This document shows positions 38,001 through 64,000 of a stretch of 64,000 nucleotides of DNA, piece by piece; the stretch's first letter is position 1; each line of letters begins with the position of its first letter. The notes under the pieces are model-generated. The model made no database searches. It saw only the letters and a program-made list of their open reading frames with translations, and was not told where the DNA came from. The DNA is from Marsupella aquatica (taxonomy: Eukaryota > Plantae > Marchantiophyta): NCBI GenBank assembly GCA_973895155.1, contig OZ316895.1, positions 6,564,136-6,628,135 of the forward strand, written 5' to 3'. The position numbers were made by a program, and so were the translations under genes.

Positions 38001-41000
38001 AGTCTGATTCTCAACTTGGGCTTTCCACTCCTTAAAAGTGGCAAAAACATCAGACTTACTGTGTCGAAAGTATATCCACACATACCTTGAGTAATCGTCT
38101 ATGAACGTGACATAGTATTTAACCGTCCAGAATGTGAGGGAGTAGGGGCTGGACCCCACACATCACTATGTACATACTCAAGTACCTCCTTGCTAGTGTG
38201 AGTTCCAACTCCGAAGGGTTTTCTGTGCTGCTTCCCAAGCACACAGTGCTCACAAAATTTCAACTTACAAGATTGCAAATTAGAAAGTAATCCTTTCTTT
38301 TGAAGAATAACTTAACCTTTTTCACTCATGTGGCCCAAACGGAAGTGCCACAGCCGGGCCGTCTCCTCAGGAGATAAGGTTACATTGGCTTCATCACAAA
38401 CAACACTGCCCTCCAAAATGTATAGATTGCTATGTCTCTTTCCCTTCAATACAACTTTAGTACCAGTTGAAACCTGAAGGACACCATTAGGAGAACTCCA
38501 CTGATGGCCATTTGCTTCTAAAACTCCAAGTGAAATGAGATTTTTCATCATGCTAGGAATATATCTCACATTCCTTAACATTCTCACAACACCATCAAAC
38601 ATATGAAATCTTACAGATCCAAGTCCAACAACTTGACATGGGATTCCATTTCCCATCAACACTGACCCGTTGGAAACCGTGTAAAAACTGAAAAAATCTC
38701 TCCTAGAGCAAATGTGAAAAGTACATGCACTATCTAGAATCCAATCATCACTACCTGGATTTGACACTACGTTGAGAGCATAACCTTGACATCACAATAT
38801 GTCATCATCATCGAGTAAATCTACCTCATACGAGCTCGATCCCGCGTTAGCAGAGGCAGTAGGGACCTTTACTCGACAATCCCTTTTCATGTGGCCAAGC
38901 TTGCCATAATTTCAACATGCAAGAGGCTTCCTCTCTTGCAATTTCCCTCTGGATTTAGATCTCCCCCGTGATGTAGATCTAAACCTGTTCTGCCCATTCA
39001 TGCGCTGCCCTGTTCTTCCCCTATTCATATTCAGTGTAGTGCCAGAAGAAGATGTTGTCTATGATTGACCCAGCTTCTTCTGAGCATCATCAGACAACAA
39101 GGAGCTCACCACCTCATTATACAAAATGGACTTCAGATCTCTATACAAGAGCACCTATTTCAAGCCTTGATATGACGGCGGTAAAGAGCTTAGCAGAAGC
39201 AAGGCCTTATCCTCATCTTCAACTCTTTTTTCCAAGTTTGACAGATCCATCGCTAGACTGTCAAACTCATCCAGGTGATCCTGCATCTTGCTCCCTTCCT
39301 TGAGCCTGAGGCTCATGAAGAGAGACTTCTTGTACAACCGGTCTGACGCATCTTCCCGGTAGTACTTCTCTCTAAGAGCCTTGAACAGTGACGCGCAATT
39401 TGCATAATCATCTAGCTGCTTAATGATGTGCGGCTTGAGATATAGCATCACTGCATTGACAGCAATCACCTGCTCCTGTCTCCATTGTCTCACAAAAATC
39501 TCCTCCTCTCCATCATACAGCTCTTGTGATGAAAGCAGATGAGCTAAGCCCATGGCCCGTAGAACACCCTTCACTTGCTTCTCCCAAAGCAAGTAATCAG
39601 TATGACTATCGTACTTCTCCACCTCAAACTTAACTCCTCCAAATCTAGCCATCTTCCTCTTCTTTCCAACTACCGACAGCTCTGGTAGTAACACAGCTTC
39701 CTCCACTGCACGCCTCACTGGTGATCGTACCGGTGATACTAGTTCCTCCTCAAACGGTAGCAGCTCCTCCTCAGACTCTTCGTCTGACCGTCACGATCCT
39801 GAAGCTTCACCGATGCCAATTCTTCTAGTATCCTCCGAGTCACTCATATGAAATAATCATGAAAAAACGTCTTTTTTCAAAACTTCTCACAAAACTCAAA
39901 ACTCAACACCGCCGCGTAGCCCACAAAGCTAGGAGTCCAATACTGAAAGCCGAAATCAAAATCAAAATTCGACAAAAAAGTTATTCAAATTTTGGTCAGG
40001 GTGGGTAAAACCTTGGGAAACTCCCCCATTTTGACCACCTCGGAGAATAACCAAAATACCCAGTACAACCCGTCGTCGGAATCACAATGTGATCGGTGCG
40101 CCGCGTTGCTAACTCTAGTGGCAACGTGCTCGCCGAAAAAGAACAAAAAAAGTTACCATTCGGCGGACGGAATCTTCGTCGAACGGAATCTTTGTTAGAC
40201 GGCCAAAAAACAGCTCTCCGTTTTTTGGGAATATTCCCGCACAGTCCGATAGGTCTCAGAGGGGGCCATTTCCCCTATCGGAGCAGTTAAAACGGAGGGC
40301 GGCAGGTCTTGGCATCAGCTAAGCCCCTTAAAACAGAAAAATACAAGTGTATAAAAAAAGGTGCATCCGCGTCGCCTATATGCGAGGACAGGGTATCAAG
40401 GCAGGCGAGTACAAAGGAAATAAGCAAGGGTGGGGCAAAAAAGAAAAAACGGTCGGCAGCTCCCAAGGGTCACGTAAGGGCAAGGAGGAGGGCGCGGGGG
40501 TTCCCTCGGGGGCTCATAGGGGCACCAAGCGGGGTCGGGCCCCAAAGGGGGGCGACCGGGGCTGTTGCCTGCCGTTGCAAGGCAGTGCAGGGTGCGAGGC
40601 TTGGCCCGGGCGCATAATGGCGAGGGACGAGGAGGGGGCGACAGCAAATGCGCCGGCCGGCGCTGCGTAAGTTGCCGCTGCGGCACAAAAGATGGTGTGC
40701 GAGGGGGGGGCGAATATTGGTATGCGGGAGGGGAGAACGCCAGTACGAGGTGTATACACCTCGTAAATACCCTCAAAGGGGCCCAAATCACCCCCTTAAA
40801 ATGAAAAATCAGCTTAAAACCAAAAAAGCCGATTACTCACATAAAAAGCCGCTCTTTCTCACGAGAAAAGTGAACGCCGCTGACGAGAAAAGTTGCCGAA
40901 TTGTACCGGCATAGTCTGCAGCTCTAGCAGAGAAAAAACCTTCCGCCGTGTCGCCTTCACTCCGCGTCAAGTGCCAAACCCAGGCTCAAAATGACCACCT

Positions 41001-45253: not shown

Positions 45254-46568
45254 ATGGCTGCCACAATTTCATGGAGGGACAACTTGTTGAAGATGATAGA
45301 GGAAGACAAGGAAGTTTGGGAGGAAGAGGCAAAGTTTCTGGGGGCAGATTTTGTTCACAGGACAATTGTCAATTCAATCCATCATACAAGGAGCATCAAG
45401 AAAGAGAAAGCACGGAGGGTCCAAGCCAGGCAAAGCTCCAAATGTGGACAGGAGGAGAGGCAAAGGTGCAGAGGATCTATGGAATGACTACTTCTCGGAA
45501 AATCCTACATATGATGAGCTGAAATTCAGAAGGAGGTATCGTATGAGTTCTAGGTTATTCAATAAGATTCTCCTAGCAGTGTGTGCACATGACAGCTATT
45601 TTCAATTGAAATTTGATGCAACAGGAAAGCCTGGTCTTTCTCCTCATCAAAAAATCACTGCAGCTCTCAGACAACTGGCATATGGTATAGGGGCAGATGC
45701 AATAGATGAATACTGTAGAATTGCTGAAACCACAACTTTGGAGTCTCTATACAGGTTTGTCAAGGCAATCAGACAATTGTATGAACCAGTATATTTGAGG
45801 AAGCCAACAGGGGAGGACTGGAAGAAGAATCTTGCCATAAATGAACAAAGAGGGTTTCCTGGGATGTTTGGGTCCTTGGATTGCATGCATTGGGAGTGGA
45901 AAAATTGCCCTGTAGCTTGGCAGGGTCAATACCAAGACAAGGACAAAACAAAATCCCTGATTTTAGAGGCAATTGCAGATCAGGAGTTGTGGATTTGGCA
46001 CGCTTTTTTTGGGCTGGCTGGAGGGAACAATGACATCAATGTTCTAGACAGATCCCCACTCTTGAATGAGTGGTTGGCAAATGAGTCTACCAAGGTCTCA
46101 TTTCAGGTCAATGGAGTACAATACAATCAAGCATATTTGTTGGGGGATGGTATTTACCCTGAATGGTCTATGTTCATTTCAACTGTGCATGTACCATAGT
46201 CTGAAAAATTGAGGCACTTTGCAAAATGCCAGGAAGGTGCTAGGAAAGATGTAGAGAGGGCTTTTGGAGTTTTGCAAGCCAAATTAGAAATTGTAAAAAG
46301 ACCTGCACGGTCTTGGTTTGTGGCTAACCTCACAAACATTTTAATGGCATGTGTCATCTTGTATAACATGATCCTGGAGGATGAGAGAGAAGAGAACTTC
46401 ACTCCATACTTGATGATTTGTACACCACCAGTGAGAAGAGGGTTGATGCCATGGTTGCAATTCTTGGAAGCTACCACGCAAATTCATGACAAAGGCTCTC
46501 ATTTCAAGCTCAGGAATGACCTTGTGGACCATTTATGGAATACAAAGGGTGCAGGCTATGGAAATTAG
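45254..46568 (+). pseudogene. PIF/Harbinger DDE transposase (frameshift or intron near 45390; in-frame TAG 46197-46199)
   Basis: FRRRYRMS..LF, GFPGMFGSLDCMHWEWKNCPVAWQGQY, WIWHAFFG..NNDINVLDRSP, YLLGDGIYP, RKDVERAFGVLQ. Confidence 0.93.
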
Positions 46569-46852
46569 CAACTGGGTGAGTTTTAACATACACTCCATGC
46601 TTATTTTGAAATATGACGCGTTGTACAATTTGTACAACTTCCTTGCACGCTTCATTCAGTTTCATGTTACTTCATGCAGGCCAGTCATGTGCAATGGGAT
46701 GTGCAACCTTGCGAGGCTCTCGAGGTTGGACCTTGTCACCCTGATTCCTCATTGTTTTGCACTGAGGTTATTGGGCATTTCAGCTTGCCAAGCTCGCACT
46801 CTCGTCAACTTCCATAGCTTGCTCATTTGCATTGTTCGATTCTGCAGCCAGC

Positions 46853-47224
46853 ATGCCTCCCACCAAGAAATCATGGAAGGGTAAAGCAAAAGCTGTAGTG
46901 GAGAAGGAGAATGATAAGAGCAAAGAGCTCACATTGTGGGACTCTGATGACGACAGGATGGAGGTGCGCTTCAAGCACCTGGCTTTGCTGATTTTGAGGT
47001 CCAGGAATGGCCTTGATGCAAACAACCATGAAATTGAGGAGCCAAAGAATGGCTCAGCTGTGGGGGACACAAAGGGTGGCTCATCTGTTGGCGAGGTGAA
47101 GAAGGGCTTGGCTGTGGCGGATTCCAAGAAGGAATCGACTGATGCGCAGAAGGCCAACACTGCTGGGGTTCAGCCAAAGTCCGACTCTGAGGATGAGTAT
47201 GGTGGGGGTTGGGATTGGTATTAG
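46853..47224 (+). CDS. Extra 123-aa ORF inside the Harbinger, function unknown
   Basis: Open ATG-to-TAG frame with protein-like composition: basic N-terminus MPPTKKSWKGKAK and acidic/aromatic tail DSEDEYGGGWDWY. A TGCAG just upstream could instead be a splice acceptor. Confidence 0.5.
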   Translation: MPPTKKSWKGKAKAVVEKENDKSKELTLWDSDDDRMEVRFKHLALLILRSRNGLDANNHEIEEPKNGSAVGDTKGGSSVGEVKKGLAVADSKKESTDAQKANTAGVQPKSDSEDEYGGGWDWY

Positions 47225-47681
47225 GTTTTAGGGCAGCCCTGAGTTCAATACATGATCGAGGTCTCATGCCATGGATTTGAAGCAAGGTTTCTTTTATTTT
47301 TAGGTTGAACCCTAATTTTGAATAGCTCTAGTGTGCTACCCACAAATTTATTTGGGATTGCACGTTTTGGTCCTTGAAAGGGCTTGTAATTCTCAATGTC
47401 ATGAGCTTTTTGGCCTGACAATTGATGAGAATGGAATTTTGAATCATATGAACAACTGTCTGTTCTTTGGCCCTTTTGTTTGCCACTCGATGATTTTCTG
47501 AATGTGGACTGAAATGAAACAGCATGTATTGAATTGGATCTGTATGAATTGACTGTCATGATATTGAAAGAAAGACTCGCCATCTGCACAATGTTGAATT
47601 GCAAGAAACACCAATTTGATTTGTCATACAAGAAAAAAACCTGAATGAAGGCCAATTTTATTTATGTCGTACATACTGATT

Positions 47682-48692
47682 TTACAAAGCTGGTTGTGGT
47701 CCTACAAATGGATCCACTTCCTGTGCAAGCCATGCTACTTCTAGATCGTCTGAAGGGTCCTCGGTGGGCACTGGAGTTGGAGGTGGTGATTGGGGCATAG
47801 GTGTCTCCACTCGAATTGGAGGTGGAACATTGAAATTGTTGGGAGGCATGGAAGATGGCCCAACAGTGTGTGCAAATGAAGCATTTTGCTGGGACACCCT
47901 CTGAATCAATTTCACAGATTCAACCAATTTCCAATCTTCCCATAGCTTGCGCATTTCTGGGCTCATGTGCTCTGTAGGTAGCGAAAGCATGGCCAGAGTT
48001 GAATTGTTCTGGTATGCAAGGGATCGCATAGTATTGGCAGCTGCCATTTCCTTTTGAGCCAAAGCTGACATCTTCAAGGCATCGTCCTGGCTTTTCAATC
48101 TCTTCAGCTGCTCCTTTGCAGCCCGATTTCCAGAAGGCCTTTTTTTGCTGGATCCTTGATTGGACTCTGTCTCATCTCCATTTTCGCCTGGCGAATTATC
48201 AGAATCAAGCTCGACGACCTCTGGAGTGGGACTGTCATTGTAGGGCAGATTTCTGTCCGGTCTCTTGGCCTTCCCTTTTGGCATGTCGTTCTCTGGACTC
48301 ATAAACCTTGGGCAATCCCTTAGAATATAATAGCAACAATCAAAAGCAAAGCTTTTGTTCTTAGGATGATTCTCCTTGTACAGCTCCTTGGCAAATTTCA
48401 AGGTGTCTTCGACATTGGTTCCTGAAACCTGTCTGCTATCAACTTGCTGGTACGCTCCTATAAATTTCTGGACATCGTGCTTGATGTCTGACCACTTGCC
48501 TTCGAGTGATTTCTTGCCCCTCGTCTCGAATTCCCGACCCTTGTTTTTATGATAATGCTCTGCTACTCGATCCCAAAATTTCTCAGCTCTCTGGCCAATT
48601 CCAACGACGGGATCTTGTGAAACATGGAGCACGCTGTAGCACAGTTGCTTCAACTCGCTTTCACTATAATTTTTCCCCCGAGTGCTAGCCAT
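47682..48692 (-). CDS. Harbinger Myb/SANT-like (NAM-associated type) DNA-binding protein, 336 aa, intact
   Basis: MASTRGKNYSESELKQLCYSVLHVSQDPVVGIGQRAEKFWDRV..SLEGKWSDIKHDVQKF..F.FDCCYYILRDCPRF..KRPSGNRAAK, typical of plant PIF ORF1. Confidence 0.9.
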   Translation of the reverse strand: MASTRGKNYSESELKQLCYSVLHVSQDPVVGIGQRAEKFWDRVAEHYHKNKGREFETRGKKSLEGKWSDIKHDVQKFIGAYQQVDSRQVSGTNVEDTLKFAKELYKENHPKNKSFAFDCCYYILRDCPRFMSPENDMPKGKAKRPDRNLPYNDSPTPEVVELDSDNSPGENGDETESNQGSSKKRPSGNRAAKEQLKRLKSQDDALKMSALAQKEMAAANTMRSLAYQNNSTLAMLSLPTEHMSPEMRKLWEDWKLVESVKLIQRVSQQNASFAHTVGPSSMPPNNFNVPPPIRVETPMPQSPPPTPVPTEDPSDDLEVAWLAQEVDPFVGPQPAL

Positions 48693-50181
48693 GATTCTTC
48701 TATGTTGATCCTGCTGGACACGAGATTCGTGCAATAGTGCTTTTGCACGAGGATTTGCAGTTTCGCACGACAAATGCCAGTCCACCGCGGGAAAGTGACA
48801 GAGCGGGAAGTCTTTGCCACCCACCCTACGATGGCAACGCGTGTAGCAATCTCCATCGTTGATTCATTTGGGTCTCGATTTGGAGGTTCCAGGCCCCGAC
48901 CGCCAACGCGACCACATCTGGCGGTCGCGGTCAGCAACTTGAGGGGACACCGTAAATGAAATGGAGGTTGCGGGGTAGCGGGGGAGTGTGTATCCGGAAA
49001 ACCAAGCCGCTATTTCCCAGGAATGGAGGTTACGGGGCTGTTTGCAGGTCCCAATGGAGATGCTCTTAGTTTACCAGTTACCAGTGGAAGTGCTCTGACT
49101 TACAGTATTAGGGCATGTCAAGCTTGGGATTTGTGAGAAAAACCACAGCTTCAAATGAAGTCTCTGGTACGGACTGGTCAAGAACACCTGCTGAAATGTT
49201 GCTTGACTTAATATCAAACCCGAGATCAAACCTGCACTATGAAAAACAACAACCATTGATCTGTGCACAGGTGGACTGTGTGTGCAGCTTGCTGGGCTCA
49301 TGTCTTTGTTACATCTCATCAGATTCAAGTAGCTACTATGACTTGTGAACCACTCAACTTTAGAACGAGCTATGGTGGACTTTCTAGTGTTGAGCATTCA
49401 CTGAGAAATGTAATTGGTCAAAAAACAACCACTGGAAATTAACTTGGTGAGAGCAAGCTAACTTGACAAACCATTTTTTTACTAACTTTGAAAAACAAAA
49501 GTGAGCAAGGACTCAATAACAAGTCCTCGTCCCAGTCCCCCCCCCCCCCCTTTCGGCACTTGGCTTACTAAATAATTCATAAAGGATGTGCAAACACCAC
49601 AAGGGTAATTTAAATTGATTTTGAACTAAATAATCTTTATTATTATATATCCATAACAAGTAAATTTCATGGGGAATCAAAGAGGAATATTAACAAAAGG
49701 TAAATAGGAGAGGGGCTCTATTCATGACTTCTAAGTTTGACATGCCCTACTAGCTTACACTTGACCATAATTTGGATAATGCCATAGAAACCTTGATAGA
49801 AACCAGGAAGTCAAGCTACAGACAAGTGTGGACCCTTCAAATTGCTCAGCCCTTCCTAAATGCACACCCTATTACTGTGTAGACCCCGATTAGTTGCAAG
49901 GTCTTCCCATACAATCTTTCTTGGACCAGTTTTTAATGTGTATATTAGCAATCTCACTAGATAGCATACTAGGTGCAAAATCCTCATCCAGAAGAGTGTG
50001 CATACTCTTATTCTTGAATTCATGTATCTTATCCCAAATTGTTAATGATAATAATATCAAGATATCCACCAAGTGTTGTCAAGATTATGTATAATTATAT
50101 TATGTATCCAGATATCCCAACCTGGGTGGCAACAGTTCTTTTCCATGTGTGAGATGCAATCCATCCATTCAATGTGAGAAC

Positions 50182-53100
50182 TGTTAGATATTGCTCTAGT
50201 CTTGTGACTCATGAGCTAACCACAGTTAGTCTAACTCGGGTTAGGACTTAGCTAATGTTAGCGGTAGTGCTGTTGTGTATATAGCCAAGGCTGATGCCAG
50301 ACCCTGATGGAACTTAGGCTCATTGTTACGGAGCTAGTTGAGAGATAGGGAGAGCTTGTGCTGTGGATGCTTGGTATGGCCAGTCGGCCTAGAGTGCAGT
50401 AAAGCTCTTGTGTGTTCCCGTGGACGTAGCCTCATGTGGAGGTGAACCACGTATCTCTCTGTGTCGACTATTGTGCATTGGATGGTTCATGGGCTTGCTG
50501 TTACTAATGTCGTCTATGCTCAACAAGTGGTATCAGAGCATGCCTGGGAGGTGATGAGGTTTTTTCGTGACTGGTTTTTTCCAGCGTTCATTGTTGATGG
50601 TACATTCGGGGTTTCATCGCATGAAACTCGAATGTGTGTGGCTGAGCGGATAGGTTAGTGAGAGGGCTTTCTAACGGTGGTTAGAACTCGCTGATCGGTA
50701 TCCGTGGTGCGGAGGAATCAAAATTTGCGTCGTTCAGGTTTTATTCGTGTTCAACGGCTTTTCGGGGGAGAGACCAGAGTTTGCATTTTTCAACGGTGTG
50801 AGCTGTGCGGTGCGGGAGGGATCGCACATTATAGCTCAAGTTGAAGGTTGAAGTGAGCTGGTCGTTTTGGTAGCTGGATTGCTACCGAGTTGTTACCAAG
50901 TGCGACATGACGAGTGACGGAGGCATTCAGGTTTTTTCACAAGCTATGGAGCTTGTTCCCATCTGAACCAGGTTTCTCTTCGTGATGTCCGTCTCAGTGA
51001 AAGAAACACGAAGTGCTACGGCTCAACGGTTTGATCACGGCGAGGCGGTCGTTTTGAGTCTGGGATTGGCACTTGATGCGGAGTGAAGGCGACGCGATGG
51101 AAAGTTTGGTCTCTGCTGAGCTTGCAGACTGTGCCGATGAAATTTGGCCACATTTACCGTCGGCGGCTTTCATTTTTCTTGTTGGAAACGGCGGCGGCAA
51201 AGGTAAGTTATTGCCTTTTTTCTTTGGGGAGTCAATTTTTGCTTTTGGGGGGATTTTAGAGGGTTTTTCTCGAGTGTATACACACGAGGTGTATACACAC
51301 CTCGGCCCCATACTCCCGAGTACGCCGTTTAATTCCCCCCCCTCCCGAGCACGTCTTTTGATCGGGCCCAGCCGGCCGTGTAATTGCCCCCCCCTTTCCC
51401 CCCCCGCGCACGCCGTTAAGTGTGGCGCAGCGACGAGTTGTGCAACGCCGGTCGGCGCTTCTTGCGCGCTCCCTGCCCCTGCCCCTTGCTGCCGGTGCCA
51501 GCCTCCGCGTACGCCGTGCGCCCTTTAGCCTGCCCTGACTCCTTCCGGGACTGCGGCCCTGGCCTGCCGATCGGCGACCCTCCTTTGTGGCCCCGCATCC
51601 CTTTGCAGCCCCTATGCAGCGCGACGGGAGGCTGCTGTCGCCGGTCAATCCCTCCCTGGCCCTGCTTTGTATTGTACTCCCGACCCCCGCCTCAATACCC
51701 TGTACGCCCCCTGGCCCGCCTCGCGTATAGGCATCGCGGATGCGCCCTTTTTTCTTTTATACTTATATTTTGTTAAGGGGCTAATCACCCCCTTCAAGGG
51801 CCTATTTTTATCCTGTTTTTTCCTCCCCCTTGTTTTACTTGGTGCTGGGACCTGCCACCCTCTGTGTTAACCGCTCCAACAGGGGGAACGACCCCCTGTG
51901 ACACCTGTCGGACTGTGCGGGAATATTCCCAAAAAAACATAGAGCTATTTTTTGGTTGTCCAACAAAGATTCTGTCCGCCGAATGGTAACTTTTTTGGTT
52001 CTTTTTTGACAAGGACGTTGCCACTGGAGTTAGCAACGCGGCGCACCAATCACATTGCAATTCCGACGATGGGTTGTACTCGGTATTTTGGTTATTCTCC
52101 AAGGTGGTCAAAACGGGGGAGTTTCCCAAGGTTTTACCCCCCCCGGCCAAAATTTGAATAACTTTTCCGTCGAATTTTGATTTTGATTTCGGCTTTCAGT
52201 ATTGGACTCCTAGCTTCGTGGGCTACGCGGCGGTGTTGAGTTGTGAGTTTTATGAGAAGTTTTGAAAAAAGATATTTTTCATGATTGTTTCATATGAGTG
52301 ACTCGGAGGATACTGGAAGAATTGGCATCGGTGGAGCTTCAGGATCGCGACGGTCAGACGGAGAGTCTAAGGAGGAGCTACTACCGTTTGAGGAAGAACT
52401 AGTGACACCGGTATGATCACCGGTGAGGCGTGCATTGGAGGAAGCTGTGTTAATACCAGAGCTGTTGGTAGTGGAGAAGAAGAGGGAGATGGCTAGATTT
52501 GGAGGAGTGAAGTTTGAGGTGGAGAAGTACGATGGTCGTACTGATTACTTGCTGTGGGAGAAGCAAGTGAAGGGTGTTCTACGGGCCATGGGCTTAGCTC
52601 ATCTGCTCTCTTCACGAGAGCAGTATGATGGAGAGGAGGAGATTTTTGTGAGACAGTGGAGACAGGAGCAAGTGATTGCTGTCAATGCAGTAATGCTATA
52701 TCTCAAGCCGCACATCATCAAGCAACTGGATGATTATGCGGATTGTGCGTCACTGTTCAAAGCTCTAAGAGAGAAGTACTACCGGGAAGATGCGTCAGAC
52801 CGGCTGTACAAGAAGTCTCTCTTCATGAGCCTCAGGCTCAAGGAAGGGAGCAAGATGTAGGAGCTTAGCAGAAGCAAATAGGTGCTCTTGTATAGAGATC
52901 TGAAGTCCATTTTGTATAATGAGGTGGTGAGCTCCTTGTTGTCTGATGATGCTCATAAGAAGTTGGGTCAATCACAGACAGCATCTTCTTCTGGCACTGT
53001 GCTCAATGTGAACAGGGGAAGAGCAGCGCAGCGCACGAATGGACAGAACAGGTTTAGATCTACATCACGGGGGAGATCTAAATCCAGAGGAAAATCGCAA

Positions 53101-54572
53101 GAGAGAAAGCCTCTTGCATGTTGGAATTGTGGCAAGCCTGGCCACATGAAAAGGGATTGTCGAGTAAAGGTCCCTACTGCCTTTGCTAACGCGGCATCGA
53201 GCTCGCATGAGGTAGATTTACTCGATGATGATGACATATTGTGATGTCAAGGTTATGCTCTCAACGTAGTGTCAAATCCAGGTAGTGATGATTGGATTCT
53301 AGATAGTGCATGTACTTTTCACATTTGCTCTAGAAGAGATTGTTTCAGTTCTTACACGGTTCCCAACGGGTCAGTGTTGATGAGAAATGGAATCCCATGT
53401 CAAGTTGTTGGACTTGGATCTGTAAGATTTCAGATGTTTGATGGTGTTGTGAGAACATTGAGGAATGTGAGACATATTCCCAGCATGATGAAAAATCTCA
53501 TTTCACTTGGAGTTTTAGAGGCAAATGGCCATCAGTGGAGTTCTGCTAATGGTGTCCTTCAGGTTTCAACTGGTACTAAAGTTGTATTGAAGGGAAAGAG
53601 ACATTGCAATCTATACGTTTTGGAGGGCAGTGTAGTCTGTGATCAAGCTAATGTAACCTTATCTCATGAGGAGATGGCCCGGCTGTGGCACTTCCGTTTG
53701 GGCCACATGAGTGAAAAAGGTTTGGCTATTCTTCAGAAAAAAGGATTACTTTCTAATTTACAATCTTGTAAGTTGGAATTTTGTGAGCACTGTGTGCTAG
53801 GGAAGCAGCACAGGAAACCCTTCGGAGTTGGAACTCACACCAGCAAGGAGGTACTTGAGTATGTACATAATGATGTGTGGGGTCCAGCCCCTACTCCCTC
53901 ACATTCTGGACGGTTATACTATGTCACGTTCATAGACGATTATTCAAGGTATGTGTGGATATACTTTCTATACAATAAGTCTGATGTTTTTGCCACTTTT
54001 AAGGAGTGGAAAGCCCAAGTTGAGAATCAGACTGGTAATAAGGTGAGATATCTTTGATCGGATAACGGTGGTGAATACAATTCCGGGGAATTTGAAATGT
54101 ATTGTAAGGAGCAGGGGATTACTCGCCATCTCACAACAAGTTATACTCCTCAGTAGAATGGTGTTTCTGAGAGACTCAACCGAACACTATTGGACCGCTC
54201 GAGGAGTATGTTGAGTCAATCATGCTTACCACATGAATTTTGGGTTGAAGTTGTCAACACTACAGCTTATTTGGTAAATTTTTCTCCATCTAGTTCTATT
54301 GGATTCAAGACACCATTTGAAATGAGGTACGGGCGTCCAGCAGATTACTCACATCTGAGGATTTTTGGATGTGATGCTTATGTGCTTACACCTTCCCAGC
54401 TTCGATCCAAGCTGGAGTCCAAGTCGAAGAAGTGCATTTTCCTTGGCTATCAGAAAGGTGTGAAGGGTTATAGGTTATGGGATCCAGTAACCTGTAAACT
54501 AATTGTCAGTAGAGATGTGTCCTTTAATGAATCCAGATCATCAAAGGAGGGGGAGAGTTCTCAGGACTCCCA
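50182..54572 (+). mobile_element. Ty1/Copia copy 2 (same family as copy 1), 5' half, interrupted by a CACTA insertion
   Basis: 5' LTR 50182-50525 closely matches the reverse complement of the copy 1 LTRs. PBS TGGTATCAGAGC at 50528-50539; left flank AGAAC. Homology to copy 1 stops abruptly after CAGGACTCCCA (54572). Confidence 0.95.
52294..54572 (+). pseudogene. Copia gag-protease-integrase of copy 2 (stops, internal deletion, truncated)
   Basis: ATG at 52294; zinc knuckle CWNCGKPGHMKRDC; WILDSACTFH; LWHFRLGH..CEHC; YVTFIDDYSR; KGVKGYRLWDP. Confidence 0.93.
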
Positions 54573-55427
54573 CACTAGAAGAATCCGAGGTGAACTGAGA
54601 CCGCAATATATGACTCATTTTGGCTCATGTGACTTCATTGTGACTCAACGTGACTTGACCCACGTTGTGACCCTTGGAGTTGCAAAAGTTGAGACCAAAA
54701 AATGGAAGTCACTATTGATACTGGGCTTTGCAACTTGCTTGATACCCATTTGTGACTGATCTGTGACTTTATTGTGGAGTCTAGCCTTGTTTCGACGTGA
54801 CTGCAATATGACTTCAGCAAGTCACATCGTAAGTCACATACATGACTTACCCGCATTCAACAACGACTAGCGTGTGACTATTTAGTGTCACAGGAGAGAC
54901 CAATGGAGACCCTGGCCCGCGTCACACAACAGAACCATTTGGGACTCTATATACTCATGTTTATAACTAATAAGGTTCACATGCAAGTTATAACCATGAC
55001 TAATGAACACAGAGGGACAGTTCATAAGGAGAGAGAGCACTCGACATTACAATACATAGAAACCTGATGTTCTAACTTTAGAAATATAACACATTCAATA
55101 CAAGAAATGAACATAGCATGAATGACATCCACATGAAACAAAGCATCATATAAGCAGATCCTACATAAAACATTCATAAGAATTAAACACAATCACAATC
55201 TTGCTAAAAAATGAAGATCATTTGAATTCCAATGGAATAGTTTACAATGTGATCAATATAATTTAGACAAAACAGGAACTCATAATTGATGACTGTAGGA
55301 TGAGATAACTGAAAGCACATGCATGATACTATGAATCTCCAAGAGGACATGATTCTTGTACTGCTTCTTGACATCTAAAATCTACATAACATGACTCACA
55401 CTACAAACAAATAATGGCATGACATTG

Positions 55428-58400
55428 TTATGGATCCTCTATGAACTTGCTTGGCCATAATACCAAAGAACCTGCAGCATCTCCAAGTGTCTTTTGAGGA
55501 GGATCATCATTTGTGTTTGGAATGGGAAGGACAGCTTTAGGTTTCACTAGTAATGTGACTAACACTACTGAATAACCTGGGGGAATCCTCTTGCCATGGA
55601 ACGTTGTGGAACCAACCTGCACTCTGCCAAATCCTACTCGTGTTCCACTCTCATCAACAGCTAACAAGCCACTTTGTCCCTCAGCATTAGGTGCTTTCCC
55701 CACTTCCACCTTAGATCTTTCTGCCAGCACTGTTCTTGGAGGTTTGTATGAAACCTTTGATGTGGCTCTGCTCCCACCAACAGACTTGCTTCGTGTGCGC
55801 ATGCTTCCTCTCTTCACAGTAGTGAAGCTAGGCTCAGTAGGTTCCTCTGTTAGGATTGTCACAGTAGCAGGTTCATCACCTGGGAGTGTCATACCAACTA
55901 ACTCTTTGGTTGGATTTATCTCAACAAGAGGCACACCTGTCATTGAGAATGATACATTCTGCAAATCATTTATCTCTGCAATGGAGTCAAGATCTACATA
56001 GCATGAATCTGGCTCAATGGTATCATTGTCATGCTTGCTGATATCCTCATTTGCCCCAACATTGATATCATCCACTCCCTTGCCAATGTCATCCTCATCC
56101 AAACATGGTTGACTGCCCTCTGTCAAACAAGTTGCTTGTACAGACTGCAACTTTGTTGCCTCTAAATTACAGCGAGTATTTACCAGGTTCTCATACTTCT
56201 TCTCTGTAGCACCTGTCTTATTCTCTATGGATACAACAACCACAATATATGTTACTGAAAATAACACATTCAACAAACAATGTCAATTCAAACTATACAT
56301 TTAATAATCATATCCCACACAGTTGTAAAGGCCTTACCTTCAAGCCTACATGTCGTTGGCATGCCAGAAGAGTGCATCGACTTTGCCACCTCAAGTGGTG
56401 ATGGTGGAACTCCTGCAGAATTGGAATCAATTTTATCTCTCACCGACACAACAGCTTCCATTAATGTCTTGAAGTTCACATGGAACAAGTCAGTCAATGA
56501 ATTCAAACGTTCATTGATCTCTGGAAGACATGTTTCGACAGCCTTCAAACAACCACTTATCTCTGTAAGTGAAGATCCACCTCCCTACATGACACAGGGG
56601 TATAGGTTCAATCACTCCATATGAAATGTTGGGCAATATATGCACAATCAATGTTATATACAGTGTACACCTGAAATTCAACGCAGGTCATTCAATTACC
56701 AATCAGAACTCATATAACTTACATGCTTGGAGGATTCAGATGCACCCTCTTGAGCCTGGGTGTTCACAATTTCAACCCTCAACTCTTCTTTTGAAGGGTT
56801 TTGCCCCAATTGGGCTTTCTGCACATGCATGGCAAACACAAGTTATCGATCAATATTCAGGGAACGTACACTAAAAAACAAAGTTTACATGTATGGGTTT
56901 ACACTAAAAACAGTACATAGTGTAGCATAAATTACATAGCTAGGCCATTCATTCTTACCAAACGTTTAGCTGTCGGTGCAGTGCCGGTCCTTCCTGTCAG
57001 ATTAGGGTTCTGAACACTCAACCTGGCCTCGGTCATCTGCGAACTCTTCTTTTTTGAAGCATCTGTTACAAAATAAGCTACTAACCTTGCCCACACTTTA
57101 TCACAACTGGCTGGTGGAGGCATATCTGGCTTCTCCCCACCTTCCTTCCAAGCCTTATGCATTCTCTACCTCTCTTGCTTGATAATTTTACCTGCTGTAC
57201 TCTCTAGGCAACCTATGTCCACGCCATCATCACTGCCCACATAATTCCATTTGGCAGCAACATTTTCACATACAGTCTTCCAATCTTTTGGATGTTGTTT
57301 TTTAAAATTAATAACACTCACATCTAACCAACGCAATACTTCAGCTTTCAAATCAGCATGCCATCGGTTCTTGCGAGGACACTCAGCATCCACCCATTGT
57401 CTCTCATTCAACTTTACGTTCCCTTTCTTTGTCACTGCTCTTGGTAGTACTGGGCATTGTATTGGCCACCCCTTCATTCACCCTACCTGGGGTTCTGAAG
57501 CCACCTGGGAAAATACAATGCCATTCATGCTTGAGAACTACATATAGCAGAATGGATGACGGCAACATTCAATGCTTCACTTCAAGAAAAATTCTTCAAA
57601 CATACATACCTGTAGCTCTGCCTGTAGATGCCTGTGCAAGGACTGCACTCTGAAATTGTTGCGACCCTGGACCACCTGTCCAGCCTAGTACAGGGGCCGG
57701 ATGATGTCACTTTCTAGGTATGTGTGTGCAAACATATGTACTGAAAACTAAGTACAAACTGTAGGAAAACAACTGAACATTCACAGACATACCTGTCCCC
57801 CTTCCGTGCTGCATCTGCATAGGGGCATTAGTGAATACTTGAGTCGATGGTTCGACTGTCCAACCTGCACACATACATTTTCTATCATTATACATGTGCA
57901 GAGTCCCCCCCACGTGAATGGACTCCACATATAATGAGTTCTTCCATTGCTGACAAGATCAGACATTACCTGCTCCTCTTCCAGCGTTTGTAGGTACTGA
58001 ATTTTGATATCCCTGCCAATTACCTTCACCACCTTCCCAACCTTGTTCATTCCACGACCCACCACCATCCTCCCAACCTGGTTCAACCCATGTCTGTCCT
58101 TGTGGACATTGGAATTGATCATTACTAGCATTTGCCCAATCAGGTTGGGCAGAATCTGCATGCAATGGTAGGTGGACAGAATTTCATGTTGTCTGAATCC
58201 AATACATCCCAAACAATGTCAAAAATTGATATGCAGTCTGAAATTCAGGAGTGCCATGCCTTCACAAAGAACTGGCATATAGATATATACTCACATCCCC
58301 ATGGTTGAGGTGGACGTCCATACCCACGAGATTGTGGGTTTGGACCTGCTCTGCCTCTACCACGGGCATAACCTAGAGCTTGCCCCCTGCCATAGTATTG

Positions 58401-59116
58401 GGCACCAGCCTGGGATCTACCACTACTACCACCTCGCCAACCTTGATCAGAGGTCAGCCCCCCCTGCTGGTATGGTGCATGCACAGGCTTCGAAGGCAAA
58501 ACAGAACTGGCAGGACGCTGCATCACATCACCAACTACAATGTCAGGAACTAAGCAAGGTACATATGTGTAGTACTGAACATATGAAACCTCTAAACAAG
58601 AGTTTTTAACTCAAAACCTTGTTGGGAAAACTACTTACATGTTTCTTTTGGGGCTGCTCTGCAATGTATTCATCTTCATAACCCCCATCCTCATCCATTT
58701 CCTCTGGAAAATACTCATCATCTGCATCTTCTTGTCTAGTGTCTGCACCCACCTGTGCAGCATCAATGTCATCTCCACATTCTGCCATTGTAGGTACGAC
58801 CTTCTTGCTCAACCTGTCACTCCGACGCACAGGCCCAGAGATAGTGCTGGTCACCCTTCTTGCGTACTCCTTTTGTTTCTTTGAAAATGCTGTGGCTCTG
58901 CGACATTCCAATATGAGAATACAGTCACAATTTCAGTGCCACATTGAACTATTCATGTCACACAAACTCAGCGGAGGGGTGTAGTTGAGAATCGTTCCCT
59001 TACAATTCAGCCACATCCTTTTCCAGATCCAGTTCTGCGATTTTGGCTTTCACGTATGCTCGTTGTTCCATAGCTTTCCTTTCATACTCACACATCTCTG
59101 TATCACTCTGTTCCAT
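55428..59116 (-). pseudogene. CACTA ORF2/TnpA-like multi-exon gene (in-frame TAG 57166-57168)
   Basis: N-terminal YERKAMEQRAYVKAKIAELDL; W..LV.YF..KSSQMTEAR..GRTG (Ptta/En-Spm-like); C-terminal VGFGRV..FHGKRIPPGYSVVLV..LPIP..TLGDAAGSLVLWP domain. Exon boundaries are approximate. Confidence 0.8.
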
Positions 59117-59272: not shown

Positions 59273-62200
59273 TCATGGCACAGACACACTGTTGGCATCT
59301 GCATCTCTGAATTCGCCTCCTTCAGCAAATGCATCTACCCTTGTCACAGGAATGAAGTCCCCGCTATCATGAACTACAGGCACTTGGTTTGAACGCCGAC
59401 GATCAAAGGCACTATGAGAGTGTAAATGAAACTCAAGGTTTGATCCTTCCATCCGACGTTGCCTGGCCTGTTTATGACACACTACACGCCAACCTGGGGA
59501 GTCTTCCACATCCAGGAAGAAAGCTTGCTCCACCTGACTAGGAAACACAAATGGCTCAGACCATTCGGGCAATTTCCCTCTGAAATTGGCCAGCAAGAAA
59601 CCGTCGTTGTCTCTCTTCATGGTAGCCCTGTTACCAAGCCAATCCTGCCGCACCCATGAACCTTTCATAAGAATCACAGGACTGGACACCGCCCCATAGT
59701 CCAGAGCCCATATGTCAACTAATTCTCCCACATATCCCATCTCCATCCAGGCCCTGTCGTGATTGTGGCTCTGTTGCTCAAATACAGTGATGAGCCCGCA
59801 GTCATTCGTCACCTTGTAGGCATTGTCACCATCCTTCACTCGGAAGTGATTCCCAAATGCTCTCATCCGTTTGTAAGTCTTCACTTTCAGGCTAGGGGCA
59901 TTAGACAGTAGGTAAACATCTGCATCCATGTCTGGGTGGGTCTCGTGATGCTCTCTAATTGCCACTCTGATCCACTCCATGAAACCTGGAAAAGTTGTTC
60001 CTGCAGTGGGATGGGCCGCCTTCAATGACTCATACTCCCTGAACGAACAACCACATAGCATTAGCTTGGGTAAACATGAACAGGCTGAAGGAGAAAACCA
60101 CACGAACACAACATTTAAGCTCATGAACTGGATTATAGCACATGTATGCACTCACTGTATCCAGGGTTCCATCACCACAGTGTTGTGCAATACAAAGTCA
60201 TGTGCCAAGTCTCTCATAGATATGGTCAGGTTCTTTGTGGTTGCAGCCCCTTCCAGTACTTCACCTATCACCCCTTCCTCCTCATCAGAATTCCACACCC
60301 TGGTCTTCACATGCTCATATTGTGCTATGTATTCGGTCAGAAATCCCAGAGTCTCATCCTTGATGTAACCTTTAGCCATGCTTGCTTCAGGTTTGTAATA
60401 TGTTCTCACGTGACCTTTGAGTAGCTTCATGTACCGTTCCAAAGGGTACAACCAACGAGCACTCACAGGCCCAAATTGGTGTAGCTCTTCCACAACATGG
60501 ACAAGTAGGTGGGTCATGACATCAAAAAATGCGGGAGGAAAATAAATCTCCAGGTCACACAGCACCTGAGCGACATCTTCTGTCAGTTGTGGGAAGTGTG
60601 TTTCATCCCAAACCTTCACACAAATACGACGAAACACATCACTGAGTCGCATGATCACAGTACGAACAGGCTTCTGCAACAGGCCCCTCAGGCATAAAGG
60701 CAATACCTGTTGCATCAACATATGGTAGTCATGGCTTTTCATACTACCAAGCTTTCTAGTCATGATATGCTTCTTGAAAGCACTGCCATAGTTTGAAGGA
60801 ACCTTCAAAGAACTCAACCTCTACACAAATAGTTCCCACTCTGTGTCTGTCAGAACATAGGGCACTTGGTACTTCAAGAGCACATCAGCTCTGTGGGCAT
60901 GTGGCCTCAACCAAAGATGGGGTTTCATTCCCCTCTGTTCAAGATCCAATCTCACTGAACCAGTGTCTTTCTCTCCACACAAGAATCTGAGTAGACTCTC
61001 ACAAATATTCTTTTCAATGTGCATAACATCAATGTTATGTTTGCTTGGCTCAAACTCCTGCATCGTTGCAATGCAAAAGCGTCAGGAAATGCCTCAAGTT
61101 TAGTCTCTCTCTTCGAAATGAATGCACATGCTCTGAACCAAAACATGTATCCCAATTAGCATCAACTCCAAGAGGCTTACCCTCCAGTACTTGAGCTCCA
61201 AGTCCAATATGCTCAGTCTTTTTACACCATATCGCTTTATTGGATCACTCACTCCATCTTCCCTGCCCCCTCGTTTGATATAGTCATCCCTCAGTGCTCC
61301 CCACTGCCTGATCTCCTCTTTGGTCACTCGTGCCGGGGGTCCACGTTGCTCAATCTCATTGCCAAAGTGTGCAATCAGTGCCTGTCTTTCTCTGTAAGGG
61401 TGATCTGCCTTCAGAAAACGACGATGGCCCATGTATATCACTTTCTGCAGGGCTCTGGAGTACTCACTGGTGACATTGCGCCCACAGATAGTACAAGCAC
61501 AATATCCTTTTGTTGTTTGGCCTGATATCATCCCATGGGCTGGGTAGTCAGCTATAGTCAGAATGACAATGGCTCTAAGGATGAATGGGTTTAACCTCCC
61601 AAGCCTCTGTAGGACATCATATGTGAGAACTCCTTCCTCCCAAAGCTTTCTCAATTCCTCCACTAGGGGAGCAAGAAACACATCTATGTTGGCAGATACA
61701 GCACTGTCTGGCCCTGGTATCAGTAGGACCATCAGAACAAAAAATCGCTTTGTAGTCATCCAAGGAGGAAGGTTATAATTCAAAATAGTTACAGGCCAGC
61801 ACGAAAATTTGTTGTTCTTGTCTCCAAATGGGTTTACCCCATCCAATGATAGCCCAAGTCTGACATTCCTCGGCTCAGCAGCAAATTCGGGATACATCTC
61901 ATCTATGAGTTTCCATTGCCTTGAATCTGCAGCATGTCGTTGTAGCCCATCATCACTTTTCTTGTCAGTTGCCCAAGTCATCATCTCCGAGATGGCACGG
62001 CTTCTGAACATCCGCTGAAGTCTGGGAATGAGTGGAAAATGACGAAGTACCTTGGCGGGAACCATAGACTTTCCTGAGTTCCGATACTTGTGCTTCCCAC
62101 ACTTAGGGCATGTCAACGATTCTTTATACTCCTTTCTGAAAAGAACATGCCCATCAGGACAGGCATGGATCGAATCATAGTTCAATCCAAGATTAGATAT

Positions 62201-62863
62201 GCATCTTTTTGCCTCGTACATGTTCTTGGGCAAAATATTACCATCTGGTAGCACAGTTGTTCGCAAGAATGCCAACAACTCAGAAACCAAAACGTTGGGG
62301 ACATTGTGGTTGCCGCAAATGTTCAGGAACATGATGACAAATCCCAGTTTAGAACATTTGCTACCGGGGTACAAAGACTTCCTGCCTTCCTGTATTTGCA
62401 GGGGAGAGCCAAACATCCCATCATGCCCAGGGGTTTCCTGCCCTATCTCAAACTCATCAAGAGGCTCTTCGACAGGGGGCACACTTGCATCTGCAGCCGT
62501 ATCCTCTTTGTTGTCCAGCCCATCATGAAATGCATCCAAGTCTTGGAAGATGTCTCTCACCATCTCTTCCACATGAATTCCTTCGTCACGTGGTGCTGCC
62601 TGAGCACCATCCCGTTGGAGAGCTGACAACCCACAGAGACCAGCTACAACATTTTCAAATGCACCAGGCAGAACCTCACTTGCCCGTCTTGCAGCATTGG
62701 CAGCATCAAATTCTAACCTCCACTCCTTGTCGGAAGAATCTTCCTCTGCAGGATCATTCCAAACTCGATGTCGTGGATCTCTTCCATGAACCGCGATATG
62801 CCGCCAAACCTCATTCAGACCCCTGGTACGGGATCCTTGGCAGATTGCACAAGGACATCTCAT
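59273..62863 (-). pseudogene. CACTA TnpD transposase (spliced; in-frame TAG 60821-60823)
   Basis: CPCAIC; IHACPDGHVLF; YPEFAAEPRNVRLGLSLDGVNPF; YNLPPW; IADYPA; DVMHIEKNICES; MKSHDYH; FPPAFFDVMTHL; EPFVFPSQVEQAFF (Transposase_21, DUF4218 and DUF4216 pattern). Confidence 0.95.
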
Positions 62864-63437
62864 CCTACTGGCTCCTGAAAGTCTGGTTCGTAACCTTTCA
62901 CGCTACCAAAGCTTATTATCATGGCGTGATATCCTTGTGGGATGATGCAAAGGCAGTGCCTGTGCCCTGGGCTGGGTCTGGGGAGGGTGGTGACCAGGGT
63001 GCATTGTAACAGGCTGGGAGCTCTGCAGTCATGGACAGCAGTGAACAAGGATGCCTAATGGTGGTATTTGTGTTCCATATATCCCTGTCTGTATCTGCCA
63101 AAAGAGTTAACATAACGTGTACTAAATTCTCACAACCCCTAAACCACCCCAAAAGAAAAAAACAGGTTCGCAAGTAGTGTACCTATTGTCAAGTGAATGA
63201 CACAAAATTCCTAAATGTTGGAGGGTGTCACCACCTCCTCCGCTGTCCTCAAATGTACCGCCTCTGCATGTACGTTTACAGTGACACCCCCAGGCAGCAG
63301 GAAACAACAATCCGCCAACAGTAAAATAAGCCCAACTGCCACCAACCATAACAAGGTACATTAGTTCAAAGATCACATTTATTTCAATGATCTGATTTAT
63401 ACAAAAAAACTTGTGTCCAAACTGATGCTACTACTCC

Positions 63438-64000
63438 TCACTCTGATTCAGAATCGCTAATGACCCATTCCTCACTTGTTGTCTCATAGTCCTCTCTATA
63501 AGGATCCTGACCCTTCCGTGGCCAGGCCTCAAAAAGATCATAGTCCATTGGGTTTTGACGCTTCCCAGCTGCTACTGATTCCACAAGCCAAGCATATGAA
63601 ACCACAAACACATTATGGGACATGACATAAAAGCGAATGTCTCCCTTTCCAAACTTGCGGCAGGCTTTGGGATATGACTTAGTAATGACATGAGTGGTGT
63701 CCTCTGTTATATTCTCCTCCACTGTCCCACCTAGGTCAAGCACTGTGGACTTGTACACTTTGCACTTAACCTCTCCAATTCCCGCCTCCACAAATACCAT
63801 GCTCAGCCCTTTCAGAATGGGGGTTGGTTGCTTCGTCTCCTCAGCCAACATACTCTTCAGCCTTGTAGAGCTCTGTCCTTTGTTGAGTACAGGTCCATAT
63901 TGGAGATCAGCAAGCCGTGCCTTTGCTTCCCAGACTTCTTGTTCAGCCCAAGCTGATGTAGTAGCTTCTTCATCCTCCCACAACTCATATTGCTCAGTAT
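63438..64000 (-). CDS. BRCT-domain protein (5'-incomplete) inside the CACTA element
   Basis: The frame is open to the window edge. ILKGLSMVFV..LGGTVEENITEDTTHVI..VVSYAWLVESVAAGKRQNPMDY has the BRCT hallmarks (GG, THV, W-x-x-x-S) at ~63821-63534, followed by a short acidic tail and a stop at 63438. Confidence 0.8.
   Translation of the reverse strand, partial: TEQYELWEDEEATTSAWAEQEVWEAKARLADLQYGPVLNKGQSSTRLKSMLAEETKQPTPILKGLSMVFVEAGIGEVKCKVYKSTVLDLGGTVEENITEDTTHVITKSYPKACRKFGKGDIRFYVMSHNVFVVSYAWLVESVAAGKRQNPMDYDLFEAWPRKGQDPYREDYETTSEEWVISDSESE

Follow-up and report, generated by a model that had tools for sequence, protein, structure and literature searches.

The window analysed here, a 64,000-nucleotide stretch of Marsupella aquatica contig OZ316895.1, contains several features of land-plant genomes, including an LSD1-type metacaspase, a BAHD transferase and a PIF/Harbinger-type element, as indicated by a Pfam scan of eight stretches. 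The last of these is a pair at 45300-48863, in which a Plant_tran nuclease is encoded on the plus strand and a NAM-associated (Myb/SANT-like) ORF on the minus strand. Two copies of one Copia family are also present in opposite orientation, at about 35900-39800 (minus strand) and 52400-54572 (plus strand). The latter, a Copia-type retrotransposon at 52423-54572, is interrupted by a CACTA element, and comparison with the other copy (97% identity over 279 nt) places the break at CCA, directly before the terminal inverted repeat (TIR). The CCA at 54570-54572 (plus strand) is the predicted 3-bp target-site duplication, whose second copy would lie beyond the window; the Copia sequence does not resume before position 64000.

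The CACTA element is located on the minus strand and runs from the TIR at its 3' end, recognised by sequence match at 54573-54587 (plus strand), up to the window edge. This CACTA-starting repeat is the single exact match in the window, and the four others found at up to three mismatches all fall within 17577-39830; the other end of the element lies beyond the window. In its general layout, the element resembles plant CACTA/En-Spm elements, which encode TnpD and TnpA. It shares with them the CACTA-starting TIR, the predicted 3-bp target duplication, spliced ORFs downstream and a transposase of the Transpos_assoc/Transposase_21/DUF4218/DUF4216 type, and it differs from them in that TnpD is preceded by an additional tandem-BRCT gene, probably without introns, which is sequenced at a depth of about 1:1 to the transposase. 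The spliced ORFs at 55428-58911 (minus strand) can be called TnpA-like by position only; no Pfam match was obtained in the three stretches of these exons that were scanned. They include Gly/Arg-rich and acidic low-complexity stretches.

TnpD itself is a multi-exon transposase gene at 59273-63003 (minus strand), with strong Pfam matches to Transposase_21 (PF02992, E 1.4e-70) and DUF4218 (E 2.3e-28) and weaker ones to DUF4216 and Transpos_assoc. The present copy carries in-frame TAG codons at 62903-62905 and 60821-60823, both of which are sense codons in most other copies; at 62903-62905, the sense codon accounts for all of the depth across four public runs. Therefore, the TnpD frame reaches at least the ATG at 63003, and a start at the ATG at 62863, which comes after the TAG at 62903-62905, is too late. 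In effect, the distance of 575 bp between the BRCT ORF and the TnpD start, as given in the initial annotation, has to be shortened to at most about 435 nt. The present CACTA copy is probably non-autonomous, with its BRCT frame still open. At most of the positions where this TnpD copy alone differs, it has A/T and the family G/C, a pattern that the decay of methylated cytosines would produce.

The spacer between the likely TnpD start and the stop codon of the BRCT gene (63004-63437) contains neither a TIR nor Copia sequence and is covered at family depth. The absence of a TIR between TnpD and the BRCT ORF, as noted in the initial annotation, holds at up to three mismatches. A TAGTG at 63175 was considered as a TIR and rejected, as it agrees with the TIR in 7 of 15 letters and no CCA comes after it; moreover, a contig of one public run (62938-63273) reads straight through it. 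Inspection by eye reveals an intron-like GT...AG pair at 63097-63180 (minus strand) in this spacer, upstream of TnpD.

At 63438-64000 (minus strand), co-oriented with TnpD, lies a stop-free frame of 186 codons, which extends inward from the window edge and ends with the stop codon at 63438-63440. It encodes one complete BRCT domain (PF00533, E 9.3e-8, 32.6 bits against a cut-off of 21.3, residues 58-141), and the frame stops 31 codons past this domain with no polymerase domain after it. Thus, the uninterrupted ORF with a BRCT and without a polymerase domain, proposed at the outset, is confirmed. Its description as a stand-alone protein with one BRCT most likely results from the cut at the window edge, where the frame is open, since the family is of the tandem-BRCT type. 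The closest relatives, P0001 (295 aa, 53% identical) and P0003 (294 aa, 47%), carry two BRCT repeats each, as do P0004, P0005, P0006 and P0021, so the ORF is likely the 3' part of a tandem-BRCT gene. The ORF aligns to residues 105-289 of P0003, and together with the open frame, this suggests that about 105 N-terminal codons with the first BRCT lie beyond position 64000. The gene is probably intronless, because its relatives are called as single open frames. These relatives, of 264-321 aa, contain BRCT domains only, and the catalytic 8-kDa, fingers, palm and thumb parts of Pol X are absent from the ORF.

Most likely, the part of the gene that falls inside the window comprises the end of repeat 1, the linker, repeat 2 and the acidic tail. 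According to the alignment with P0003 and its model, the stretch at 63828-63998 (minus strand) encodes the final residues of repeat 1 and then the inter-repeat linker, which is predicted to form a long helix followed by disorder. Repeat 2, tentatively assigned as Pol lambda-type from Pfam, profiles and alignments, corresponds to 63534-63827 (minus strand). An AlphaFold2 model of P0003, based on a nine-sequence alignment, displays two BRCT folds (mean pLDDT 74, pTM 0.42), with a helix at residues 114-142 and pLDDT under 50 at 138-163. The possibility that the domain is the C-terminal BRCT of a larger host protein, for instance an FCP1-type phosphatase, was discarded, given that the relatives are full proteins of 264-321 aa and have their second BRCT at the N-terminus. 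Among 822 candidates, no longer fused form of the ORF was found, which is weak evidence. A close-alignment scan for relatives confirmed none of the 196 metagenome, 164 viral and 134 prokaryote contigs that had matched by pattern, and a scan of viral contigs with P0004 gave no match.

The C-terminal end of the protein is an acidic, Ser/Thr-rich tail (63441-63506, minus strand), with sites that we take to be of the CK2 type from their consensus. The tail, singled out previously for its loose resemblance to FHA-docking motifs, is conserved within the subfamily, where residues Y279, T281 and E284 are invariant in all four members, but it is absent from three distant family members. The tail of P0005 contains a Ser-Thr-Asp-Glu run, presumably similar to the FHA-docking sites of XRCC1 and XRCC4. 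The tail of the window ORF is one residue off the spacing of this run.

Public sequencing data link the BRCT gene to the element. Nine public runs from seven studies contain the whole stretch or a part of it, and depth was compared between single contigs within one run, a summed depth being no measure of copy number. No RNA dataset is listed among these runs, which speaks neither for nor against expression. In run X1, depth reaches 1799 over the BRCT (63601-63980) against 1554, 1693, 1863, 1782 and 1775 over TnpD, and in run X2 it is 4538 and 4734 over the BRCT against 4166 over TnpD. In run X4, two BRCT subfamilies with depths of 31 and 11 stand against TnpD values of 40, 53 and 42, with 39 over the spacer. 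Each of these three runs carries a different organism code. In four runs, coverage extends over all 30 bins between the TIR and the window edge, and contigs span 62938-63273 in X4 and 63400-63607 in X7; in the runs compared, no single contig bridges the BRCT gene to TnpD. CpG observed/expected ratios are 0.27 for the ORF and 0.38 for TnpD, compared with 0.55-0.69 for three host-gene stretches. The BRCT gene thus reads as carried by nearly every copy of the family, with the 5' TIR beyond the window. The original placement of the ORF inside the CACTA element agrees with the depth of about 1:1 to TnpD in three organisms and with the lack of an intervening TIR or Copia, although the 5' TIR is not reached. 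A second subfamily of the BRCT gene, seen over 63400-64000 in X2 and X4, is about 95% identical and present at a quarter to a third of the depth in the two organisms.

The reading frame may be retained under selection. All 33 differences recorded among copies of the gene lie in the ORF, and 15 of them are synonymous with no stops, against a synonymous expectation of 22-28% (one-sided p 0.002-0.02, rough omega 0.33-0.46); these differences are not independent, and eight come from single low-depth contigs. Within the BRCT, 10 of 17 differences are synonymous, compared with 5 of 16 in the remainder of the ORF. The sole indel inside the ORF is 3 nt long and in frame. For the marker differences of the second subfamily, 6 of 17 are synonymous, which is not significant (p 0.14-0.33). 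Frames are intact among relatives at 47-57% identity, and intact relatives are found down to 25%. A scan with P0021 gave one 1404-nt contig, L001, which is 98% identical to P0021 and has its frame broken by a stop; its CpG ratio of 0.28 fits a multi-copy methylated family. No transposase match was obtained in the 467 nt downstream of the BRCT gene of L001.

The most probable donor of the domain is Pol lambda, which several sequence comparisons favour over the other BRCT classes. A phmmer search of 1.84 billion representatives returned 15 hits, seven of them from the family. Among the eight others, four have Pol lambda as their best PDB match, namely P0015 (E 2e-13), P0013 (2e-8), P0010 (6e-3) and P0012 (0.2, its only hit); two are BRCA1-type, one is named TopBP1, and the eighth, P0008, is unclassified. 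P0015 falls into one cluster with a named snail Pol lambda. The 261-aa gene model P0012 lacks a catalytic domain, and its identification depends on weak matches; its label, jgi/Mesen1, presumably denotes the streptophyte alga Mesotaenium. It is the best non-family match on both profiles, with 56.8 bits for repeat 2 and 44.6 for repeat 1, and the repeats score each other at 36-57 bits, a range that includes P0012. Since, outside the family, both repeats score best on the same algal lambda-type domain, internal duplication is indicated instead of the capture of a ready-made pair. An N-terminal BRCT followed by a Ser/Pro-rich stretch, as in P0012, is also described for AtPol lambda in the available part of PMC4444747. 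Full-length relatives of P0012 were absent from 176 candidates.

Profile-profile comparison and phylogeny agree with this donor. The hhalign scores are 88.5 for P0012, 79.2 for snail Pol lambda and 70.4 for the BRCA1-type P0016. In a tree of 32 domains, in which all outgroups are themselves matches to the ORF and no land-plant Pol lambda is included, 15 family repeats and four lambda-type rows share a branch with 86/93 support, with one long TopBP1 repeat inside it; repeat 1 forms a clade (99/94) adjoining P0012 (84/81). Four long rows, comprising two TopBP1 repeats and the second repeat each of P0011 and P0016, were then dropped; in the reduced tree, eight of the nine remaining others are set apart from the family and the lambda-type rows by a 99/96 branch, and one long TopBP1 repeat still stays on the family side. 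In topology tests, joining the family and lambda in one clade costs 2.4 log units (AU p 0.41), and joining the family with the BRCA1-type costs 17.5 log units (AU p 0.062), so that the test does not reject the latter grouping.

Other searches do not single out Pol lambda. The ORF alone has BRCA1 as its top PDB match (E 0.01), with no Pol lambda among 27 rows, and in a search with the family profile, Pol lambda (28.2 bits) comes after Rtt107, REV1 (31.5 bits) and several BRCA1 chains. When the ORF is scored against a generic profile built from 13 other BRCTs, it reaches 58 bits, nearly as much as the 62 of a three-row lambda profile, and look-ups in a protein-cluster atlas gave generic BRCT clusters only (best 0.89 and 0.91). 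Fold searches confirm the BRCT but do not separate its subfamilies: for the P0003 model, the top match is PARP4 (Z 14.6, with an rmsd of 2.1 over 96 residues), many other proteins also rank ahead of Pol lambda (Z 10.1 and 9.7), and the first Foldseek entries are Rad4, ligase IV, TopBP1 and BRCA1 tandems (TM 0.23-0.28, rmsd about 17-22). Thus, the Pol lambda likeness put forward in the initial annotation is upheld as the best-supported donor by matches, hhalign and trees, while the ORF-alone PDB search, the family profile and the fold ranking do not favour it, and the BRCA1-type placement retains an AU p of 0.062.

Comparison with the N-terminal BRCT of Pol lambda (human 2jw5/9g9l and AtPol lambda) reveals a match over the full-length domain, a Gly at the position of G52, and conservative residues at R57, L60 and F61 in the window ORF. 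The family differs in having two repeats, an acidic tail and a variable Ku-contact surface, and in lacking a Ser/Pro linker or a catalytic domain after the BRCT. At the R57/L60/F61 positions, the window ORF has Lys/Val/Tyr and P0003 has Lys/Met/Tyr; P0001, which is 53% identical to the ORF, has Thr at the R57 position. Across the family, this position is basic in 6 of the 14 repeats that cover it (1 of 6 for repeat 1 and 5 of 8 for repeat 2), and the L60 position is polar in six of nine repeat-2 rows.

The biochemistry of Pol lambda suggests what such a domain might do for a transposon. According to the accessible text of PMC12056208, the BRCT of human Pol lambda binds the Ku70/80 bridge with R57 and L60 as key contacts, and gap filling falls below the knockout level in the presence of catalytically dead Pol lambda, except when R57 is mutated. 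The available portion of PMC4444747, citing Roy 2013 and Huefner 2011, reports that the BRCT of AtPol lambda mediates its binding to AtLIG4/AtXRCC4 and that the enzyme is active at transposon excision sites. We favour, with a probability of about 0.4, the reading that this gene is a conserved CACTA passenger encoding an enzyme-less two-BRCT protein of about 295 residues, derived from Pol lambda, that docks on the end-joining machinery at the breaks made by the element. Its parts stand at different strengths: the passenger gene is well supported, the Pol lambda origin is likely from the comparisons above, and the role in NHEJ is a plausible but hypothetical mechanism.

As to its origin, one or more BRCT exons of Pol lambda would have been captured and duplicated internally, with loss of the catalytic part and retention under selection. 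The resulting two-BRCT protein would dock on Ku and XRCC4-ligase IV at element-made breaks. Repeat 2 could take the Pol X site on the Ku bridge, in a manner similar to catalytically dead Pol lambda, and with the bridge occupied, end joining by gap filling would proceed more slowly at the emptied donor site. Repair of such a site can in general copy the element back from the sister chromatid, and a shift toward this route would raise the copy number. Alternatively, the excised ends might be kept unjoined, with the same effect on copy number. The acidic tail may provide a second contact controlled by phosphorylation. The further step, in which the doubled Ku-docking domain serves as a decoy or a two-ended tether that steers excision repair to raise copy number, is put forward as a tentative one.

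The same origin and location are compatible with another function. The twin BRCT may be an adaptor for the element's own business, which would, for example, link chromatin or a degradation target with the transposase or with further passenger proteins and would no longer contact Ku. Such an adaptor role in the element's own gene set is nearly as likely as the Ku decoy or tether. It is in line with the poor conservation of the R57/L60 surface across the family, in which the folds and the family-specific aromatic motifs are yet kept, and known transposon passengers mostly act on silencing, as KIU and VANC do in the accessible text of PMC13317346. On the other hand, the window ORF and P0003 retain the conservative Lys/hydrophobic/Tyr pattern at the Ku-contact positions, which counts against this role.

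Two further readings concern the origin of the gene and its place in the element. An unlikely one is that a tandem of the BRCA1, TOPBP1, REV1 or ligase IV type was captured, which would read phosphorylated damage marks or wrap XRCC4, the lambda likeness being generic. The BRCA1 match of the ORF in the PDB, the three BRCA1-type and TopBP1 hits among the eight outside the family, the AU p of 0.062 and the Foldseek order are all in its favour. Ligase IV carries a long linker in its tandem BRCT, and the family linker of about 55 residues is similarly long. These tandems also share with the family two BRCT folds per chain, but the family differs from them in that a phosphate pocket is not conserved, the repeats take no fixed arrangement in the model and the profile scores are weaker. 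The BRCA1-type pocket consists of Ser/Thr-Gly and Thr/Ser-x-Lys motifs, neither conserved in the family alignments, and in the P0003 model, the repeats are unpacked and joined by a disordered linker, at a pTM of 0.42. Moreover, the non-family match that both repeats prefer is one lambda-type domain, and the 99/96 branch places eight of the nine other rows apart from the family. Less likely still is that the ORF lacks a function for the transposon, being neutral cargo in the manner of Pack-CACTA, a separate nested element or a neighbouring host gene. The 5' TIR beyond the window, the missing contig between the ORF and TnpD, the stop in L001 and the non-significant synonymous test within the subfamily all leave some room for it. 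Against it stand the depth equal to TnpD in three organisms, the intact relatives from 57% down to 25% identity, and the overall synonymous excess without stops among 33 differences. Furthermore, with the element inserted in Copia, a host gene could not fit in ahead of the second TIR.

Captured passengers conserved in DNA transposons are already known, and within the literature searched, a BRCT passenger in a CACTA element is undescribed. TET/JBP genes are reportedly carried by fungal DNA transposons. Together with KIU/Ulp1 and VANC, they share with the present case a host-derived domain kept intact in a DNA transposon family across diverged lineages; they act or are thought to act on silencing, whereas the donor here is an end-joining factor. 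KIU/Ulp1 and VANC of MULEs are the conserved transduplicated plant passengers covered in the available text of PMC13317346, in which the terms 'BRCT' and 'DNA repair' each have a count of 0; the term 'transpos' likewise has a count of 0 in the available text of PMC10386641. The Pack-CACTA elements described in that portion of PMC13317346 also hold host-derived coding sequence, but the present element differs in having its own transposase gene and a cargo that is old, duplicated, family-wide and apparently under selection. The literature search revealed no BRCT gene in a CACTA or other DNA transposon, with most subscription journals, Repbase and supplements outside its scope; the TE annotation tables of non-seed-plant genome papers could still mention one.

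The importance of such a gene lies in the fact that copy gain of cut-and-paste elements depends on the repair pathway that closes the donor break. It is usually assumed that the host decides which pathway this is. If the favoured reading is true, the element would encode its own modulator of eukaryotic NHEJ, in contrast to the passengers in the accessible text of PMC13317346, which act on silencing and not on repair. If the BRCT protein damps end joining, it might also serve as a compact tool with which genome editing in plants is pushed toward homology-directed repair. Should the link to Ku fail, the gene would still represent an undescribed class of conserved CACTA passenger.

Within the wider family, P0004, P0006, P0009 and P0020 form a distant branch whose members are devoid of the acidic tail and end in Tyr-Thr-Pro; P0006 is situated on a 13.4-kb contig.
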